Part shown: positions 7,834-16,038 of the stretch, piece by piece
How the letters are laid out: every line of letters starts with the position of its first letter
Numbering within the stretch: position 1 is the stretch's first letter
Virus record (IMG/VR): IMGVR_UViG_3300017971_000042
Location: 2,375 to 66,374 of that record
Length of the DNA stretch: 64,000 bases
Source of the DNA: a virus
Strand: one strand, 5' to 3'
Position numbers and translations under genes: made by a program
Notes under the pieces: generated by a model
Told to the model about the DNA's origin: nothing
What the model saw: the letters and a program-made list of their open reading frames with translations, nothing else
The model's database searches: none

Positions 7834-8457
7834 TTAATTCCGCTCCTTACGTTTTTTCGTGGCTTTCTTCACCAACTCCGCCAAAGCCGATCCCCTTTTC
7901 TTTTTATCAGATTCCTTAATCGCTCCATCGATTACAGCTTTTTCATCATCGGTAACCTGGAAGGAGATGGTGTTAAGTTTATCCTTGGCTTCAGCTGCAG
8001 CTTTCTCTTCGAGATTTTTATCTAAATTATCCGGAAGCTTCAGCAGATTTAAGCTGTCCTGGAGCTGAAGCTTTGTATCCGGAAGTTCAACTGATAACTG
8101 ATCAAGTGATATTGATTCATTCAATGAATGTACAAGTTGCGCATATTCTTTAGGTCTGGCGTTCCCCTTCAGATAATTCAAATTGGCGGTTAGTATTTTG
8201 GCGCGGTCATCCGGAACATCGATGATAACACAATCAATCTCATTCCATTTTAGCTCAATCGCTACCGTATATCGCTGCTCCCCATCTATAATCTGATATT
8301 TATTACGTTTAGAGGGGTGTTTGCGGACAACCACCGGCGCCATTTGCCCGTCGGTTAGCAGACTCCGCTGAAGTTTCAATAGCTTTGGTGCTGTTAAATG
8401 GTTGGGATTCCAATCGTTAGGAACCAGCTTCGTTATTTCGATTGTGGTGATCTTCAA
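7834..8457 (-). CDS. ParB/Srx N-terminal domain protein
   Basis: LVPNDWNPN, PVVVR, YQIIDGEQRY. Confidence 0.85.
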   Translation of the reverse strand: MKITTIEITKLVPNDWNPNHLTAPKLLKLQRSLLTDGQMAPVVVRKHPSKRNKYQIIDGEQRYTVAIELKWNEIDCVIIDVPDDRAKILTANLNYLKGNARPKEYAQLVHSLNESISLDQLSVELPDTKLQLQDSLNLLKLPDNLDKNLEEKAAAEAKDKLNTISFQVTDDEKAVIDGAIKESDKKKRGSALAELVKKATKKRKERN

Positions 8458-8471
8458 TTTATGCCTCCAAT

Positions 8472-9467
8472 TTATTCTGCTACTAATAGCACCTCGTGCC
8501 AGTGAGCATCTACGTTTACTTTTCCCCCGAATGTATAGCGGTGGTCAACTTTAATATCCCGGACCTTGGATTTGAATTGCCGGACCATATCCATATAGCC
8601 CATCTTGGTGATGGTCTTCTGCCCTACCGATATAATCCATTTAGGGATATGAGCGGCCGCCTCAAAAAGCCCCAGTGTATTCTGCATCACGTTCTTCTCA
8701 TTAAAGCGGCTCTTCTCTGCAGTCGTAACTGCCCGTTTCAATAGACAATCAAGAACGTGATACTGTTTTTCGTATGACTGAGCCCCATAATATGGAGGAT
8801 CTATATAAACCGCATCCCCTTGAACCTGTTTTAAAAACTCGCAGACGTCCAACTGGTGACACTCGTTTTCAAAGCCGTTATCAATCACTCCATCGTTTAT
8901 CTGTCCGGCGAGATCCTTCAATACATGAAGTAATGGCCGGGAATAATCTTCTTTTAAAGCCAGAAGTGTATCGGTTAACTCATCGTCGCTTTCCGCATTT
9001 TGAATGCTCTCCACAGCATTAGGATGAGTAAAACCTCCCATCGGTCTGTAGAATATGGCTGTCTTAATCCACAGAAGTTTCATCAAGACCGCCTTGGTGG
9101 GATCCTCGAACCTCTGTATATTCGCCCAGGCTGCATCCAGAAACTCCCCTATCTCGTTTGTATAAAATTGAGAGTAGTTCTTGATCAGGAAATTATCGGT
9201 TTCGGTGGGTTCGAATAGCCGGTAGATATCGGCGTCAGTAATCTTAACGTCCGGATTCTCGATTAGTGCTTTTCCGATTACAGCTGAACGGTCAGCGATA
9301 TCGTTGCATAATACACGGAAACCCTTTGCTTTCGCTAAGAGTGACACTGATCCCCCTCCCAGAAATGCATCAATGAATGTTTCGCCTTCGGCATAACTCA
9401 AAATCCTGTTCGCCAGCTTACGTTTCCCGCCGAAGTAGGCGGGAGCGGCCGCAAATAGACGGAGCAT
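8472..9467 (-). CDS. D12-class (Dam-like) N6-adenine DNA methyltransferase, orphan
   Basis: YFGGKRKL, DAFLGGGSV (motif I), NDI, YIDPPY (motif IV); GGAGG RBS; no adjacent restriction endonuclease. Confidence 0.9.
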   Translation of the reverse strand: MLRLFAAAPAYFGGKRKLANRILSYAEGETFIDAFLGGGSVSLLAKAKGFRVLCNDIADRSAVIGKALIENPDVKITDADIYRLFEPTETDNFLIKNYSQFYTNEIGEFLDAAWANIQRFEDPTKAVLMKLLWIKTAIFYRPMGGFTHPNAVESIQNAESDDELTDTLLALKEDYSRPLLHVLKDLAGQINDGVIDNGFENECHQLDVCEFLKQVQGDAVYIDPPYYGAQSYEKQYHVLDCLLKRAVTTAEKSRFNEKNVMQNTLGLFEAAAHIPKWIISVGQKTITKMGYMDMVRQFKSKVRDIKVDHRYTFGGKVNVDAHWHEVLLVAE

Positions 9468-9512
9468 AAGGCCTCCAATAGTAATGTCCGAAGGGTCTGA
9501 TGAATATTTTGA

Positions 9513-9541
9513 TTGACGGGTAGCTACTTCCGGTCTATCTT
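9513..9541 (+). promoter_or_regulatory. Sigma70-type promoter for the antisense ncRNA
   Basis: TTGACG-17 bp-TATCTT; predicted start near 9548. Confidence 0.6.
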
Positions 9542-9553
9542 AGTTTTGCGTGT

Positions 9554-9636
9554 ACTGGAAGTGACCCTTCGGGGTGATCATGTGTTGTAGCACATGGTCG
9601 GTGGAGAGGCCTATATCTTCTCCGCTCACTTCCGGT
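9554..9636 (+). ncRNA. Candidate structured ncRNA (four-way junction), antisense to the MTase leader
   Basis: Four abutting helices, a cUUCGg tetraloop, six G-U pairs valid only on the + strand, an upstream promoter and a T-rich tail. Confidence 0.7.
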
Positions 9637-9680
9637 CTCTTTTACTGACCGTTTTTCTTTTAAATCTTCATTACGATAAT

Positions 9681-9710
9681 AATTTATTTGTTGGAATGGG
9701 AGTTTGTCAA
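9681..9710 (-). promoter_or_regulatory. Putative promoter of the MTase-ParB-terminase-head operon
   Basis: TTGACA (9710-9705)-18 bp-TAAATT on the minus strand. Confidence 0.45.
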
Positions 9711-9846
9711 GGGGGGCAGGAAAGAAATGGTATATATACCACCTTAAAATGAAAAAAACGGTAGATATACCATCAGTTCTGTTTTTTTTGTTCACTTAGT
9801 TGATCGGCAGTTATCGGCTAAATTAGTATGTCCCCTATATACACAC

Positions 9847-11601
9847 TTATGATGTTGGCCTTTCAAACTGAATTCCCAATAGAGTCCCCGATGGATCACG
9901 GTCAGTTAAAGTGAGTCTTACTTGGTTATCGAAGTCAAAAGTCTCACTAAAATCATCTCGCGGTACCATATCAGAATTAAGTGTACATATGTACTGAGTC
10001 CCTAATGAGCTGCATACTTTATGGGCTCGTTCTAATGCTTTTGCACGTTGACGTGAATCTACGCCATCGTAGAGAATGCTATCATGTATAAGAAAGTCGA
10101 TATTCTTGTCTCTACTTCGAACAAACTCGGTTAGCATCAAATCGAAACAAAACACCTTCATTTTACTTACACCCTCACTCCCGCTGCGCTCAATCTCAAC
10201 ATCATACTTATAACCTGAATCAGAAATATTTATAACGAGTTTACCTGGACTTGTATATAGAGCTTGGGAATTGTCATTGAATAATCGGATTGCTTCGGTC
10301 CACAGCTCTCGTCTTTGCTCATGATCCTTTTCTGCAATTGATTCGAGTTCTGTTTTTCTTATCTTAATTGCACGCTTACGGGATGCCATATCCTTCGACT
10401 CAGCGATACGAGTCTTAATCCGCTCACAACGCTCTTTAATATCCAGAAATCTCTCTTGCAGACTTGTCATTTCCTGCAAAGCGCCATGTGTGCTTAAGAT
10501 TTTCAGTGAATTGGAACGTGTTTCCGTCAATTTACGAATTCCTTTTTCTCTTTGCTCTATCTGGCGTTCCAAACGGGAGATCTCAGTCTTCAAGAAAGAT
10601 TTGCGGTTTTCGACAATTATCTCATGATATTCCTTTGCTTCATCTAAAGTGCGCTTGATAGAGGTAGAGAATACCACACCTGATTCCTCATAAAGCTTTT
10701 CAAGCGATATATCAGACGGCGGCTTTTCAGAGGCAATAGATTCTCTGTAACGGGCAAGTTGTCGCCTTTCAATTACGTTCCGATTTGTTAGATTATGGAT
10801 TGTTGCGGTTTGTTTATCAGCTTCCTCCTGGATCGCCTCATACTGGGGATGCACCTTAAAATCTGAGAGTGCCTGCTGTTCGCAGTGAAGCTGTTCTTCA
10901 AGACGGACTTTTTCTGCTTCAAGTTCACCGACAGTGCCAATAGTTTCTTTTATAGCACCGGTCTTGATTGCTTTATCAAGAGCCTTAAGAGCTTCTTCCT
11001 GATCCTTTAATATCTGCCATTGTGATGCATATTCCCAGTTAAGGGCTAAAAGAAAGCCAACATTGAGCTGGAAATCCCATGTCCTTTGATGCCTATAATG
11101 TCTAAAGGGATCAGCATAAGCATCCGAGCCATTTCGAATAAAATAAGATATAAGGCTGCGATATGCGGGTTTATACTTATGGACATCATCAGTTTGTGGC
11201 AAACCAAATAAAGCCCAGCCTAACAGCGTTTTCCATCTCTGAAGGTTGAAAATCAATTCACCGGAGTCTTCTACTTTATCCGGTTGTTCAATCCAGCCCT
11301 CCGTCTCACCTTCTATCACAATTCTATTATGAGACTCTATAGATCTTGTTGCCTTTATACGATTACCCGCTAGGGTGATATCGATTGTAAAGGCCCAATC
11401 CTTAAGCGGATCAATCCTGAGGACATTTCCATTGGAGCCCAAACAGAAGTCAATGATCTCAATTAGAGTTGTCTTGCCTAGGCCATTTCTTGTGTCTTTT
11501 TGAGTGGAAGTATCTGTTCGCTCAGCAAGAATTACATTTAAACCAGTAGTAAGCTTCACGGAGTGAAATGATGATTTATTGGCATAGACTCCGTGTATCA
11601 T
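9847..11601 (-). CDS. lmuB: Lamassu/ABC-three-component SMC-like ATPase (LmuB-like, DUF2326)
   Basis: RNGLGKTTL Walker A, long coiled coil, GSEG, KVFCFDL, FLIHDS..DGVD..Q. Confidence 0.85.
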   Translation of the reverse strand: MIHGVYANKSSFHSVKLTTGLNVILAERTDTSTQKDTRNGLGKTTLIEIIDFCLGSNGNVLRIDPLKDWAFTIDITLAGNRIKATRSIESHNRIVIEGETEGWIEQPDKVEDSGELIFNLQRWKTLLGWALFGLPQTDDVHKYKPAYRSLISYFIRNGSDAYADPFRHYRHQRTWDFQLNVGFLLALNWEYASQWQILKDQEEALKALDKAIKTGAIKETIGTVGELEAEKVRLEEQLHCEQQALSDFKVHPQYEAIQEEADKQTATIHNLTNRNVIERRQLARYRESIASEKPPSDISLEKLYEESGVVFSTSIKRTLDEAKEYHEIIVENRKSFLKTEISRLERQIEQREKGIRKLTETRSNSLKILSTHGALQEMTSLQERFLDIKERCERIKTRIAESKDMASRKRAIKIRKTELESIAEKDHEQRRELWTEAIRLFNDNSQALYTSPGKLVINISDSGYKYDVEIERSGSEGVSKMKVFCFDLMLTEFVRSRDKNIDFLIHDSILYDGVDSRQRAKALERAHKVCSSLGTQYICTLNSDMVPRDDFSETFDFDNQVRLTLTDRDPSGTLLGIQFERPTS

Positions 11602-11825
11602 GCATGAATCCTCTCTATCAATCCATCCGATAACTCGATAGCACCTATGATATATAGCATGTCTAATGTTAGCACAAACCGTTCAAAATTACCGACTCCG
11701 TTCGCCGTACGAACCCGTTCCCACAGACTTGTAACGGTCTGAGATTTATCAAGTTCATTAATTATAACTGCTCCTACTCCGAGTAATGTCTGCTGAGTAG
11801 ATATATGTTTTGATGGAAGGATCAC
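11598..11825 (-). CDS. ABC-three-component middle component (LmuC-like)
   Basis: 75 aa MILPSKHI...FERFVLTLDMLYIIGAI, coupled between effector and ATPase. Confidence 0.75.
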   Translation of the reverse strand: MILPSKHISTQQTLLGVGAVIINELDKSQTVTSLWERVRTANGVGNFERFVLTLDMLYIIGAIELSDGLIERIHA

Positions 11826-12508
11826 TTTTCAAATACCTCACACGCTTCAAACAAATATATCAAAATAGCAAGCCCTGCGGATTTCTTTGCCTGATCTGAA
11901 AATCCGCGCTGAGCGAACTGGCACATCAAATCGAAAAGATCATCACCGGTATAGCCATCTTTCTTCAAACGATAGTATTCACTCAAGAATCCTCCTTTTA
12001 AACGCTCAGGGAAGTTACTATCAGTTTGGGACACGATTTCTATATAATCACTCACTTCATTAGCTACACTTAATCCCATTGTAATAATCACTCGGGATCC
12101 GTTACCTAATTCGTTTTTCTTAATCTTGTCATCTGGGGGAATGACTGAGAAATCCTGCTCAGTCTGTCCTGGTTGTAATTGCATGATCCATTCAGTTGCT
12201 TCCTCTAATTCCGGAAAGCCGACATCGGCAAATGCTTCAGTCATTGCATCTCGAACCTTTTTCTCATGCTTCAACTTGATTTTATGAAGACGTTCCACCG
12301 GATAATCTTTCGCACCATTATTCTTGTCGTCAATTACATCATGGCAAACACCACAGATATAAATCAAGTTATTATAATGATTTCGTTCTTCAACCGTCAT
12401 GTGAGGATCGTACCGAGCTGCACCATTATTTTCACCCGCTATGTGTGCAGCCTTGCCAATGTTTATTGGATCACCAGATTCACTTTCTGGGGTTAGATAT
12501 TTATCTGT
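11822..12508 (-). pseudogene. LmuA-like HNH effector plus ABC-3C C-terminal domain, apparently 5'-truncated
   Basis: Frame is open to TAA at 12509-12511 (TDKYLTPES...GKAAHIAGEN..AARYD..ERNHYNNLIYICGVCHDVID), but the first ATG (12400) lies after the AAHI His; CTD motifs DDKIKKNEL and YLFEACEVFEK. Confidence 0.65.
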
Positions 12509-12690: not shown

Positions 12691-13206
12691 CCCTGATCTC
12701 CATCATTCATAATCCTATTGACATTCCTATCATCACCGACCTTATTCATACCATGTTCGAAGACTTCTATAATGACCGCCACATGCCGGTAGCATTCAAG
12801 CTGATATTATCTATCCTTGAGGGTATCATCCTCGGTATCAGGTGGATCTTCAAGAAACTTTTTTTTCGTCATAAATAGATATCATAATTTTCAATCACTT
12901 CGCGCTTAGAAAGTAATACTAATTCATGTATCCTTAGTATTCGAAATTAAACATACTTCCCTATGAATGATTTTTCAAGGCACCTGGACAGCCTCCTTAA
13001 AATATAACTCCATATATAGCCATTTATTTTTAATAAACTATCCCGTTAAGGAATCCTGAGTTGAGTTTCAGGAATTCTAAAATTTTACTTGACTTTTGTC
13101 ATACTGCTGCTATATTTTTTAATTAAGGGCTCAAGGTGGTTGGGATCACTTGTAAAAATATATAAAGCGGCGAGTCTGGTATTAGTTTTTTCGAATGGAG
13201 GAAACA

Positions 13207-16038
13207 ATGAAAAGGACTTTTCTTTCCATATTAATGGGATTAATGTTTTTAATATTTATCTCATCCACCGCAACGGGTGGCAATTCAAAATATGGTCAAG
13301 GTCATTTACTTAATCCTAAAATTCCCTCAAAAGGAATAACCTTCACAGAGAATAAAGGGCAATTCGGGGAAATCACAAAATTCAAGTGTGAATCACCAGG
13401 GGCAGTACTCTATTTTACTCAGGGAGAAGTAGCCTACCTTTTAACACGTGAGACAGATGAACTGATCGAGTATCCCGAGGATATGATTCATCATGAGATG
13501 GATGAATTGCGAGAGCTTAGACCGCGATACAAAAAGGAAGCGATATTAGTCAAAGCCAAATTCCTTGATTCAAACCCCGATGCAGAGATAATCGGTGAAG
13601 GAAAGCTTCCACATTATTACAACTACTTCCTAGGCAATGACCATTCCAAATGGGCAAAACGGGTTGCTAATTATTCATCGGTTGTATATAAGAATATCTA
13701 TCCCAGCATTGACCTGAAGTATTATGGAAATGGAAATTCTATTAAATACGATTTTATAGTCCATCCCGGATCAGATCCATCGGTTATAAAAATCCAATAT
13801 GAGGGAATAAAATCTCTATCGGTAAATGAGAAAGGCAAGCTAATAGTGTCTACCTCTTACCGGGAAATCATTGAAAATAATCCAGTTATTTTCCAAGCTA
13901 AATCTGAGGGTATTTCTGGAGCATTTTACAAAATAAATGAGAATACTTTTGGATTTAGGTTGAATAGTAAATATGACGCCAATCAAGAATTAATCATTGA
14001 CCCGGAACTCCTATTCAGTACTTACCTTGGTGGATCTATAGATGAATATGTCGGAGACCTCTCACTTGATTCGGATGGCAATGCGATAATTAGCGGTTAT
14101 ACTTTTTCGTCTGATTTCCCATTAGTAAATCCATACGATTCTCAATTTGGAGGTGATAGAGAAATTTTCGTCAGTAAACTCTCATCAGATGGCTCTAGTT
14201 TATTATTTAGTACTTTTATCGGAGGTTCAAGCTATGAATCAGGAAGGGGAAATGTTCTCGGCTCCGAAGGTAATATTTATGTGTGCGGATATACTTTTTC
14301 CAATGATTATCCACTTGTTAATCCCTTTGATGATTCGCTAAATTCCCAAGAAGCTGTAATTTCGATACTAAATTCTTCCGGGGATTCGCTGATATATAGT
14401 TCATATTTTGGTGGTTCCGAACAGGAAAGTGCATTTGATATCACTTTAGATGATGATGACTTTATTTATTTATCCGGATACACCTATTCAGGAGACTTTC
14501 CATTAGTAAATCCAATATTTGCTACATTCGGCGGTATATGGGATGCCTTTATTGCCAAATTTACTCCCAATGGTCAATCATTAATTTTCAGTACATATTT
14601 TGGAGGTTCTGATAGGGAGACATCAAATAAGATAATGCTTGATAATGATCAGAACATAATTTTATGTGGTTACACAAAATCATCTGACTTATATATTGTA
14701 AATGCAGTTGATTCTCTCAATGAATCTAATAACTATGATGGTTACATTGCAAAAATATCAAGCAGTTATGATTCTTTGATATTTAGTACTTACCTTGGCG
14801 GACGAGAGGATGAACAGTTATCCGGAGTAGATCTTGATGATGATGATAACATATATGTCTGTGGGAATACCTTTTCGGATGATTTTCCTATTAAGAATGC
14901 TTTCGACTCAACCTATGGAGGATTCGACAAAAGAGATGGTTTTATTACAATTATTTCTCCTTCATGTGATAGCCTTATTTTCAGTTCTTTCATAGGTGGG
15001 GATCGAGATCACGCTGATGATATTGAGGATATATCAGTTGACAACAATAATCACATACATGTCACGGGATGGACTTATTCCGAAGATTTTCCAATAAAAA
15101 ATCCTTTTGATGATACTTTTAACGGAGATAAAGATATTGTTGTTATGGAATTTTCCCAATATGGAGAGGAACTTATTTATAGCACTTATTTTGGTACGGA
15201 AACACTGGAAATTGGTGATGGCATAGCCGTTGATTCAATAGGAAACACCATTATAACAGGGGTTACATGGGCACTTGATTTCCCAGTATTAAATGCATAT
15301 GATTCAACTAATAATGGTATTATCGACCTATATGTATCAAAATTTTCACCGGCCGAATGTTTAGATTTAACATTAACACCTCATACGATAAGAGTTCCTA
15401 ATGATAACGGTTATATACATTTTGATATTGACCTGTTCAATTGCGGAGTTACATCAATCCCTGTTGAAGCTCAATTGCATCCAATTATCATTGATTGCGT
15501 CGGAACACCTTATACTCCGGGTTTCATGAATAGAACCCTCACTACACTTTTATCTCCGGGTTCATATTTTTCTGACAGCTATTATATCATAACCGACAAT
15601 GTAACTGGCTTGGGAAGTGGTGGGGTACAGATTGTAGCCGGTCATGAGATTGATAAATGGTTAGATGTTGACTGTTTTGAAATCATCTTCACCTATCCCT
15701 GGGGAAGAAAGACTGGAAACGAGTCTTTCGGATTCAGTGAATGGGGGGAGGTGAATCATGAGGATAATATACCTCGCGAGTTTTCGCTCTCTCAGAATTA
15801 CCCAAATCCATTCAACTCATCTACAACGATTGAATATACACTTCCTGTAAAATCCCATGTAATTCTGGAAATTTATAATATCCTGGGGCAGAAAGTTGAT
15901 ACTATAATCAATGGAAAACAGAATCCCGGAAACAAAAGCATTACTTGGCATGCCAACCAGTACGTATCCGGTATCTATTTTTGTAAGCTGGAAGTTTCTG
16001 GAGAAATATTGGTTCGGACTATAACATTAATAAAATGA
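13207..16038 (+). CDS. Secreted SBBP-repeat beta-propeller protein with C-terminal T9SS-A/FlgD-like domain
   Basis: Signal peptide, FTENKGQF, repeated LxFSTYLGG / GYTxSxDFP, C-terminal LSQNYPNPFNSST...SGIYF. Confidence 0.88.
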   Translation: MKRTFLSILMGLMFLIFISSTATGGNSKYGQGHLLNPKIPSKGITFTENKGQFGEITKFKCESPGAVLYFTQGEVAYLLTRETDELIEYPEDMIHHEMDELRELRPRYKKEAILVKAKFLDSNPDAEIIGEGKLPHYYNYFLGNDHSKWAKRVANYSSVVYKNIYPSIDLKYYGNGNSIKYDFIVHPGSDPSVIKIQYEGIKSLSVNEKGKLIVSTSYREIIENNPVIFQAKSEGISGAFYKINENTFGFRLNSKYDANQELIIDPELLFSTYLGGSIDEYVGDLSLDSDGNAIISGYTFSSDFPLVNPYDSQFGGDREIFVSKLSSDGSSLLFSTFIGGSSYESGRGNVLGSEGNIYVCGYTFSNDYPLVNPFDDSLNSQEAVISILNSSGDSLIYSSYFGGSEQESAFDITLDDDDFIYLSGYTYSGDFPLVNPIFATFGGIWDAFIAKFTPNGQSLIFSTYFGGSDRETSNKIMLDNDQNIILCGYTKSSDLYIVNAVDSLNESNNYDGYIAKISSSYDSLIFSTYLGGREDEQLSGVDLDDDDNIYVCGNTFSDDFPIKNAFDSTYGGFDKRDGFITIISPSCDSLIFSSFIGGDRDHADDIEDISVDNNNHIHVTGWTYSEDFPIKNPFDDTFNGDKDIVVMEFSQYGEELIYSTYFGTETLEIGDGIAVDSIGNTIITGVTWALDFPVLNAYDSTNNGIIDLYVSKFSPAECLDLTLTPHTIRVPNDNGYIHFDIDLFNCGVTSIPVEAQLHPIIIDCVGTPYTPGFMNRTLTTLLSPGSYFSDSYYIITDNVTGLGSGGVQIVAGHEIDKWLDVDCFEIIFTYPWGRKTGNESFGFSEWGEVNHEDNIPREFSLSQNYPNPFNSSTTIEYTLPVKSHVILEIYNILGQKVDTIINGKQNPGNKSITWHANQYVSGIYFCKLEVSGEILVRTITLIK

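Follow-up and report, generated by a model that had tools for sequence, protein, structure and literature searches.

The 64,000-nt stretch of DNA analysed here (the window) comprises bases 2375-66374 of the 66,374-bp IMG/VR virus record IMGVR_UViG_3300017971_000042, which represents an uncultured phage and has direct terminal repeats. A 379-bp gap between two minus-strand genes of the window harbors an element of 83 nt that, on the plus strand, folds into a four-helix junction; it occurs only once in the record, about 12 kb from the record ends. The gene whose start faces this element encodes a D12-class N6-adenine DNA methyltransferase (MTase) and is the first gene of an MTase-ParB-terminase-portal block. 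The present account concerns the four-helix element as a candidate small-RNA gene, and its possible relationship to the leader of the MTase gene. The features of the locus are given in Table 1.

Table 1. Features at the locus of the four-helix element, in window coordinates. Mirror denotes the minus-strand counterpart of a plus-strand segment; L002 and L003 are contigs carrying the same fold.
Feature	Position	Strand	Remarks
Core of the putative small RNA: four-helix junction, no unpaired linker	9554-9636	+	P1 9554-9563/9627-9636; P2 9564-9575 (ACCC-UUCG-GGGU); P3 9576-9599; P4 9600-9626. Indicated by RNAfold minimum free energy (MFE) and centroid folds, covariance-model matches in L002 and L003, covariation, and G-U strand asymmetry
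D12-class N6-adenine DNA methyltransferase gene	8472-9467	-	Pfam PF02086, E 1.8e-19
MTase translation initiation region	9450-9479	-	GGAGG 9476-9472, ATG 9467-9465, first codons
Putative sigma-70-like promoter of the small RNA, TTGACG-17-TATCTT	9513-9541	+	9/12 matches; ends 12 nt before P1
Weak terminator-like hairpin, CGGTC-9nt-GACCG then TTTTTCTTTT	9633-9661	+	Overlaps last bases of P1; T-rich tract
Convergent promoter-like site, TTGACA-18-TAAATT	9710-9681	-	10/12 matches; same site in L002
Exact 11-nt repeat, ACTTCCGGTCT	9526-9536 and 9628-9638		First copy in the small-RNA promoter spacer, second is the P1 3' arm
Exact 10-nt complement of P2 (9563-9572), CCGAAGGGTC	9488-9497		Predicted to form an 'Alt' helix in the minus-strand leader, which excludes the mirror junction
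Mirror of P4 5' arm and loop, AGGCCUCU in the leader	9605-9612	-	Complementary to the MTase Shine-Dalgarno region
Two 12-bp palindromes, GGTATATATACC and GGTAGATATACC	9729-9740 and 9760-9771		31 bp apart, upstream of the leader promoter

Across nt 9548-9650 of the plus strand, the junction is both the MFE and the centroid structure predicted by RNAfold (-47.4 kcal/mol, z-score -5.26), and none of 200 dinucleotide shuffles was as stable. The opposite strand of the fold reaches -33.3 kcal/mol (z-score -3.35). All 83 nt of the core are paired apart from three loops, and the stems are mostly of 7-10 bp, with P2 being short. A first-pass annotation of the sequence had named this arrangement, and all of the sequence features it listed are present in the window. 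Its four helices without a linker stand, while its helix registers are one pair off at the junction, where both versions are possible. The junction can shift by one step, with A9564 pairing to either T9575 or T9626 and G9600 to either T9626 or T9575, giving two equivalent registers; this ambiguity is not kept in L003.

Three contigs, belonging to two lineages, carry the fold: the window, L002 (also L004 and L087) and L003 (also L176). The MTase of the L002 contig is 91% identical to that of the window, and that of the L003 contig 53%. At each locus the fold is antisense to the MTase gene and located shortly before its start, at a distance of 87-88 nt in the window and L002 and of 66 nt in L003. 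The intergenic DNA of L003 is too diverged for a sequence-only alignment, which misplaces its helices. A covariance model (R1), for which only the window and L002 were used, matches L003 at positions 2-79 over its full length and without any non-standard pair (31.5 bits, E 9.4e-6), and a further model (R2) also matches L002 (as L087) and L003. When the three sequences are aligned, 97 of the 98 cells making up the 34 pairs (99%) are paired, and 12 of the 34 pairs have changed on both sides, compared with a mean of 4.3 in shuffled alignments and with no case among 500 shuffles that reached 12. Controls in which the partner was slid by 1-3 columns gave 39-51% pairing and 0-2 double-changed pairs. 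The UUCG loop of P2 is the only invariant loop; the loops of P3 and P4 and most stem letters vary while the helix geometry is kept. The covariance-model test earlier suggested for this element has in this way recovered the fold in L003, with compensatory changes between the lineages. The behaviour expected of a conserved structured RNA, with pairs kept through compensatory changes, is therefore seen in three sequences from two lineages, in a structure-fitted alignment, and we consider it very probable that the element is a real, conserved RNA structure of the plus strand.

The strand assignment is provided by the G-U pairs, which number 6 of 34 in the MFE fold of the window, 6 of 34 in L002 and 7 of 30 in L003. 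Each of these becomes an A-C opposition on the minus strand, and the reverse case, a pair favouring the minus strand, occurs in just one of the 98 cells. For the window this agrees with the earlier statement that all six non-Watson-Crick pairs are G-U on the plus strand. The plus-strand MFE values are -45.9, -43.8 and -35.6 kcal/mol for the window, L002 and L003, while their mirrors give -28.6, -33.8 and -20.1 kcal/mol. Because the G-U pairs lie on the plus strand and turn into A-C on the minus strand, it is the plus-strand RNA that is the selected molecule. The same asymmetry bears on whether the element acts as single-stranded or duplex DNA, for example as a signal for priming or replication, as a site of packaging, or in binding the ParB-like protein. 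The adjoining ParB-like and terminase genes, and the end of the L003 contig 1 nt past the fold, would suit such a role. A cruciform would, however, need both strands to fold, and one of them has 6-7 A-C mismatches; moreover, a conserved promoter-like site is aimed at the fold, the element lies some 12 kb from the ends of a complete record, and variable neighbouring cargo also explains the break of the L003 contig. We regard a DNA element as very improbable.

Searches for additional members were extended in several directions. The MTase alone and a 13-sequence MTase alignment retrieved no contigs from the viral collection beyond L002 and L003. Eleven further MTase homologs are present on metagenome contigs: P0002-P0004 and P0006-P0012 at 48-68% identity and P0013 at 42%, the last of which had no match in viral contigs when used as a query. 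At least 80 metagenome MTase loci of at most 40% identity yielded no copy of the RNA with R1 under default filters, a weak blank given that these filters also missed L003. Among 80 viral loci of TerL relatives, only L087 and L003 scored with R2 under default filters (all others had E values of at least 4.8). A degenerate P1/P2 pattern picked out 34 viral loci, one of which passed R2 (L176, the L003 contig), and at least 120 genome loci, of which 80 were searched with R2 and none passed. When 321 records (2.5 Mb) were scanned on both strands by structure alone, 44 candidates emerged, with no new clear member among the best 40. That only three contigs carry the fold could be taken as a sign of a chance structure without function, but the z-score of -5.26, the retention of the fold in a lineage whose intergenic sequence is otherwise strongly diverged, and the outcome of the structure-only scan, where the only rows among the best 40 of 44 with a strong, uninterrupted junction as MFE are nine from these same three contigs, make this barely conceivable. 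A separate, weak four-helix candidate (-21 kcal/mol) was observed about 80 nt downstream of a distant D12 MTase (28% identity), at L018 1916-1996 (+) and L016 3520-3600 (+), where both context and strand differ.

Comparison with known RNA classes was made with Rfam 15, two of the three scans being restricted to about 200 nt for maximum sensitivity. No match overlapping 9470-9710 was found at E<=10 in window positions 8000-12000, the five matches within 9480-9700 reached 10.5-17 bits relative to thresholds of 36-80, and nt 11000-11188 of L176 gave no match. This search, which the first-pass annotation had called for, thus brought no family near its gathering threshold in either the window or L176, including the C4 antisense RNA (RF01695) and skipping-rope (RF02924) families. 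A tRNA or tmRNA was also considered and rejected, as ARAGORN reports no such gene in the window and the fold has no linkers and stems of 7-10 bp. Two small open reading frames (ORFs) were discarded as coding sequences upon inspection by eye: in the plus-strand ORF 9594-9752 an indel shifts the frame of L002 relative to the window, and for a minus-strand ORF of 13 codons L003 lacks a start codon. A full-text literature search, which did not extend to supplementary files, found no published description of the element.

Promoter and terminator assignments are consensus matches only. The proposed TTGACG-17-TATCTT promoter ahead of P1 is indeed present as a promoter-like site, and it lies at a distance that is conserved in two lineages: the homologous site of L002 is identical in motif and position (9/12, ending 12 nt before P1), and L003 has TTGACA-18-GATAAT (11/12) on the RNA strand, ending 13 nt before P1, as the only promoter-like site in 600 nt. 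The Bacteroidota -7 box TAnnTTTG was not relied on, since L003, unlike the window and L002, does not match it and the use of Shine-Dalgarno motifs is high. From the position of the window site, the small RNA would start at about 9548, and with a 3' end near the hairpin that follows P1 its length would be about 95-115 nt. The L002 counterpart of this hairpin (6 pairs, 7-nt loop) is flagged as terminator-like, and the window copy, with its 9-nt loop, is not. On the facing strand, the predicted convergent TTGACA promoter at 9710 likewise exists as a promoter-like site and is conserved in L002. A leader of the MTase and late operon beginning there would start near 9674 and, at about 205 nt, would run through the whole small-RNA gene in antisense. 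Both flanking genes are on the minus strand, and such an overlap would depend on a leader start located upstream of 9636.

The two promoter-like sites face each other, with their predicted starts about 125 nt apart, and a T-rich tract and a terminator-like hairpin follow P1. This layout would also be expected if the promoter alone mattered and not its RNA product, with convergent transcription from 9513-9541 interfering with the late operon and the junction serving only to terminate and stabilise a by-product transcript. A by-product, however, needs no set of 34 pairs kept by 12 double changes, as a simple hairpin terminator would be enough, and this explanation is considered improbable.

Two repeats connect the element with its surroundings. 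The recurrence of the P1 3' arm within its own promoter, previously pointed out, is exact in the window, and in the leader the copy at 9526-9536 constitutes a second perfect 11-nt site for the 3' arm of the small RNA; L002 retains 9 nt of it as a core, but the repeat is not kept in the distant relative L003. The pairing of 9563-9572 with 9488-9497, put forward as a competitor of the junction, involves an exact complement in the window and has a counterpart with changed letters in L003, which lies inside the promoter spacer of that contig.

In all three loci, the predicted fold of the minus-strand leader is a long-range structure rather than the mirror of the junction. The leader MFE is 9-13 kcal/mol better than that of the enforced mirror junction (-63.6 vs -54.7, -74.8 vs -65.2 and -46.9 vs -34.0 kcal/mol), and in it the P4 mirror pairs with the MTase Shine-Dalgarno sequence, start codon and first codons. 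The letters involved differ between lineages, AGGCCUCU pairing with GGAGGCCU in the window and CCCUUUCC with GGAGAGGG in L003, so that sequestration of the Shine-Dalgarno sequence is predicted in three loci with different letters. The P2 mirror pairs with the downstream spacer, through 10 perfect pairs in the window and through 7+3 pairs of different letters with a 2-nt bulge in L003, and the P3 mirror is the sole hairpin to survive in the three predicted folds. The predicted paired probability of the ribosome site, from the Shine-Dalgarno sequence to the AUG, is 0.81, 0.71 and 0.67 (window, L002 and L003) in the free leader, and falls to 0.49, 0.40 and 0.51 when the mirror region is blocked in the manner of a bound antisense RNA. 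Only 6, 11 and 14 of 500 shuffles equal or surpass the duplex between the P4 mirror and the initiation region in strength. We consider sequestration of the ribosome site by the predicted leader fold to be moderately supported. As a side observation, the mirror is predicted to pair better with the ParB start region in L176 (9414-10043; -32.9 kcal/mol) and with the small-terminase start region in L004 (5573-6382; -28.5 kcal/mol) than with the respective MTase start regions, which could be due to chance or could hint at a wider control within the operon.

The conserved alternative pairings and the predicted sequestration of the ribosome site are what would be seen if the minus-strand MTase leader alone were functional, as a cis-acting riboregulator or a kinetic folding switch, with no plus-strand RNA being made. 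Yet the junction is optimised on the plus strand, where each sequence has 6-7 G-U pairs that become A-C on the minus strand and the reverse is seen in one of 98 cells, and in L003 a near-consensus promoter points in the plus direction. A leader acting by itself is thus judged quite improbable.

The interpretation that we favour, and to which we give an even chance, is that the element is a small-RNA gene whose product acts as a cis-encoded antisense regulator of the MTase/late-operon leader. Seen in this way it is a new RNA family whose general kind, that of cis-antisense regulators of phages, is known, while its closed four-helix architecture is unusual. The transcript, about 95-115 nt long, would be read from the plus strand from its own sigma-70-type promoter. 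The leader by itself would avoid the mirror junction, weakened as this is by 6-7 A-C mismatches, and would take up the long-range fold in which the P4 mirror is paired with the Shine-Dalgarno sequence and start codon of the MTase, and the P2 mirror with the spacer. The P3 mirror, left free, could present a loop that kisses the P3 loop of the small RNA and in so doing starts the pairing of the two molecules. Pairing between small RNA and leader would remove the partner that masks the Shine-Dalgarno sequence, and would produce a long sense/antisense duplex open to cutting by RNase III, so that both the translation of the MTase and the fate of its mRNA would change. RNase III is known to cut the long duplexes of antisense pairs. 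Interference may also come from a collision between the two convergent transcriptions. That both transcripts exist and meet, and that translation is affected, we infer from the arrangement of the locus. With respect to the earlier proposal of a cis-antisense switch on the MTase leader, the conserved plus-strand fold, the promoter-like site and the competing pairing have been borne out, and the switching itself remains a prediction from modelled structures. Outside the leader, no match of at least 12 nt to the RNA was found elsewhere in the window, and duplex energies of the RNA with all initiation regions gave no consistent top target.

Several points weigh against an antisense regulator. The small-RNA promoter of the window is weak (9/12), and the four promoter-like sites in 9000-10300 are not above the chance expectation from shuffles (3.2, standard deviation 2.2). 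The terminator is also weak, and the L003 contig ends 1 nt past P1, which confines the comparison of both the terminator and the leader promoter to the window and L002. The alignment used for covariation was fitted to the structure of the model, and as two of the three contigs are near-identical, all covariation comes from one deep comparison. Only three contigs among those searched carry the element. All leader structures are thermodynamic predictions. Within them, the energy of the P2/spacer duplex is not better than that of shuffles (45, 197 and 68 of 500 at least as good), the MTase initiation region ranks first of all 63 initiation regions for pairing with the mirror in the window but second of 15 in L004 and fourth of 11 in L176, and the arms of P1 and P4 are generically Shine-Dalgarno-like or anti-Shine-Dalgarno-like. 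None of the four sequencing runs listed for the stretch is on record as RNA.

The conservation pattern would also fit a structured RNA that acts by its shape, as a scaffold or decoy for a protein (the ParB-like protein, MTase, terminase, a junction-binding enzyme or a host defence sensor), its antisense position being incidental. Helix geometry is kept despite changes in most stem letters and in the loops of P3 and P4, with only UUCG invariant; pairing of all 83 nt except for three loops is unusual for antisense RNAs; there is no other complementary site of at least 12 nt in the phage; and the linkage to MTase, ParB and terminase is strict in 3/3 contigs. However, the sample comprises three contigs, and no protein partner is indicated by any analysis, which also leaves the more speculative suggestion of the first-pass annotation, that the RNA partners the MTase protein, without backing. 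Antisense control explains the position opposite the leader, the convergent promoters and the conserved alternative pairings more simply, and a role through shape is regarded as rather unlikely.

A more elaborate form of antisense control can be envisaged, in which both strands of one 83-bp stretch encode working RNAs and the small RNA is a positive cis-antisense regulator that unlocks the methylase and packaging operon. The plus strand would provide a rigid junction RNA, while the minus-strand mirror would be deliberately weakened and would lock the ribosome site of the first gene; the second 11-nt site, in the leader spacer, would allow a two-step release. To our knowledge, cis-encoded antisense activators of translation are rare, and we look upon this version as unlikely. 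Were it true, a closed four-helix junction in the role of a cis-antisense activator would be new.

The genes following the MTase in the window encode a ParB_N protein, a probable small terminase, the large terminase and a Mu-F-like head protein. The order RNA-MTase-ParB-TerS-TerL-portal is common to all three contigs. On its other flank the element is followed in the window by an ABC-3C type cassette (DUF2326 with CTD10; middle component MC6), and in L002 by an aspartyl-protease-like gene and a DUF5678-like ORF. Because the gene order on the MTase/packaging side is common to the three contigs and that of the other flank is not, the RNA, judged by synteny, belongs to the packaging side and forms the boundary of a slot for variable cargo or defence genes. 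This slot spans 9847-12400 in the window and 415-2424 in L004, and the L003 contig breaks 1 nt past the RNA (position 1). The two palindromes upstream of the leader promoter have no further copy in the 64-kb window at 0-1 mismatch, and L002 keeps both of them, with a terminator-like flag on one. They could serve a regulator of the late operon as operators, or act as a weak pair of terminators for the cargo genes upstream. Between ParB and the small terminase, L004 (4474-5391, -) and L176 (8485-9417, +) both have an Amidoligase_2 gene (E 5e-22 and 6e-24) in the opposite orientation, which the window lacks.

Of the 60 long ORFs of the window, 37 have a Shine-Dalgarno motif ahead of them, as against 199 of 2000 random sites. 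Because of this, classical translation signals in the host, and by extension classical promoters, are plausible, and sigma-70-type promoters would be reasonable to expect. A phage protein at 13195-16038 of the window has a type-9-secretion sorting tail, and the most probable host is a bacterium from the wider FCB group that uses Shine-Dalgarno signals, and not one of the classical Bacteroidia. Neither 401 genomes from a single bacterial phylum (the one to which a metagenome-assembled genome titled Flavobacteriales belongs) nor 5 genomes reached through the loci contained an MTase relative at E<=1e-30. Among GenBank phages no close cultured relative was found: the intergenic DNA has no match there, the MTase has one match of 28% identity and TerL matches at up to 32%. 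The DNA runs containing the stretch are labelled as sediment and seawater metagenomes. Contigs from the four DNA runs are of the window type and the L002 type only, found together, with no further variant. Over window positions 9300-9900 the two phage types have similar depth (about 11 and about 9) in runs X1 and X2, the contig sets of which are identical and may represent one data set filed twice.

If the antisense interpretation is correct, a compact new RNA family would allow an uncultured phage lineage to time the first gene of its packaging operon by a sense/antisense pair on the same 83 bp. The system is small (two promoters, one leader and one small RNA) and is fully testable in a reporter. 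RNA design could also profit from the perfectly stacked junction as a module of natural origin. Should the interpretation fail, what is left is a small phage RNA that is conserved.

With regard to known systems, the arm order of the fold (a long closing stem, a short arm of 3-4 bp and two longer arms) and its size of about 80 nt are shared with tRNA and with tRNA-like four-arm RNAs such as skipping-rope (RF02924). Unlike these, the window RNA has no linkers and no conserved T-loop or D-loop letters, and has stems of 7-10 bp. In the EcoRI restriction-modification system, antisense RNAs tune expression in a unit that includes a DNA methyltransferase gene, as described in the abstract portion of the report (PMC3141266). 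That is a cellular or plasmid system with RNAs that, according to the same portion, lie inside the coding region, while here the RNA is opposite the methylase leader; a conserved four-helix fold is not mentioned in that portion of the abstract (PMC3141266).

The predicted pairing of an upstream leader segment with the ribosome site resembles the cloverleaf in the leader of the MS2 maturation gene and the rpoS leader acted upon by DsrA. Such leaders open when an early alternative fold (MS2) or a small RNA (DsrA) takes the upstream segment. Unlike in those cases, the competing RNA would here come from the opposite strand of the same DNA, and it is only predicted.

Antisense RNAs that time or restrain key genes are well known in phages, and include C4 of P1/P7 (RF01695), CI of P4, OOP and anti-Q of lambda, and sar of P22. 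The window RNA would be a regulator of the same kind, ordinary for phages, with a different target and genome position. It shows no likeness to them in sequence or structure and no Rfam match, RF01695 included. C4 and CI act on sites that precede their own gene within one transcript, whereas the window RNA is convergent to its presumed target.

Further parallels are the plasmid systems CopA/CopT of R1 and RNA I/RNA II of ColE1, in which the regulator is likewise small (about 70-110 nt), highly structured, transcribed from its own promoter and opposite the leader of the controlled gene. Their targets keep a mirror hairpin whose loop can start the pairing, and the counterpart at the present locus would be the P3 mirror. 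The plasmid RNAs have one to three stem-loops in a row that are not closed by a helix such as P1, while the window RNA is closed; similarly, the four-way junction of CopA-CopT forms between two RNAs, and that of the window within one. Finally, the plasmid systems repress replication functions, whereas the target here would be a phage methylase together with the packaging operon that it heads.

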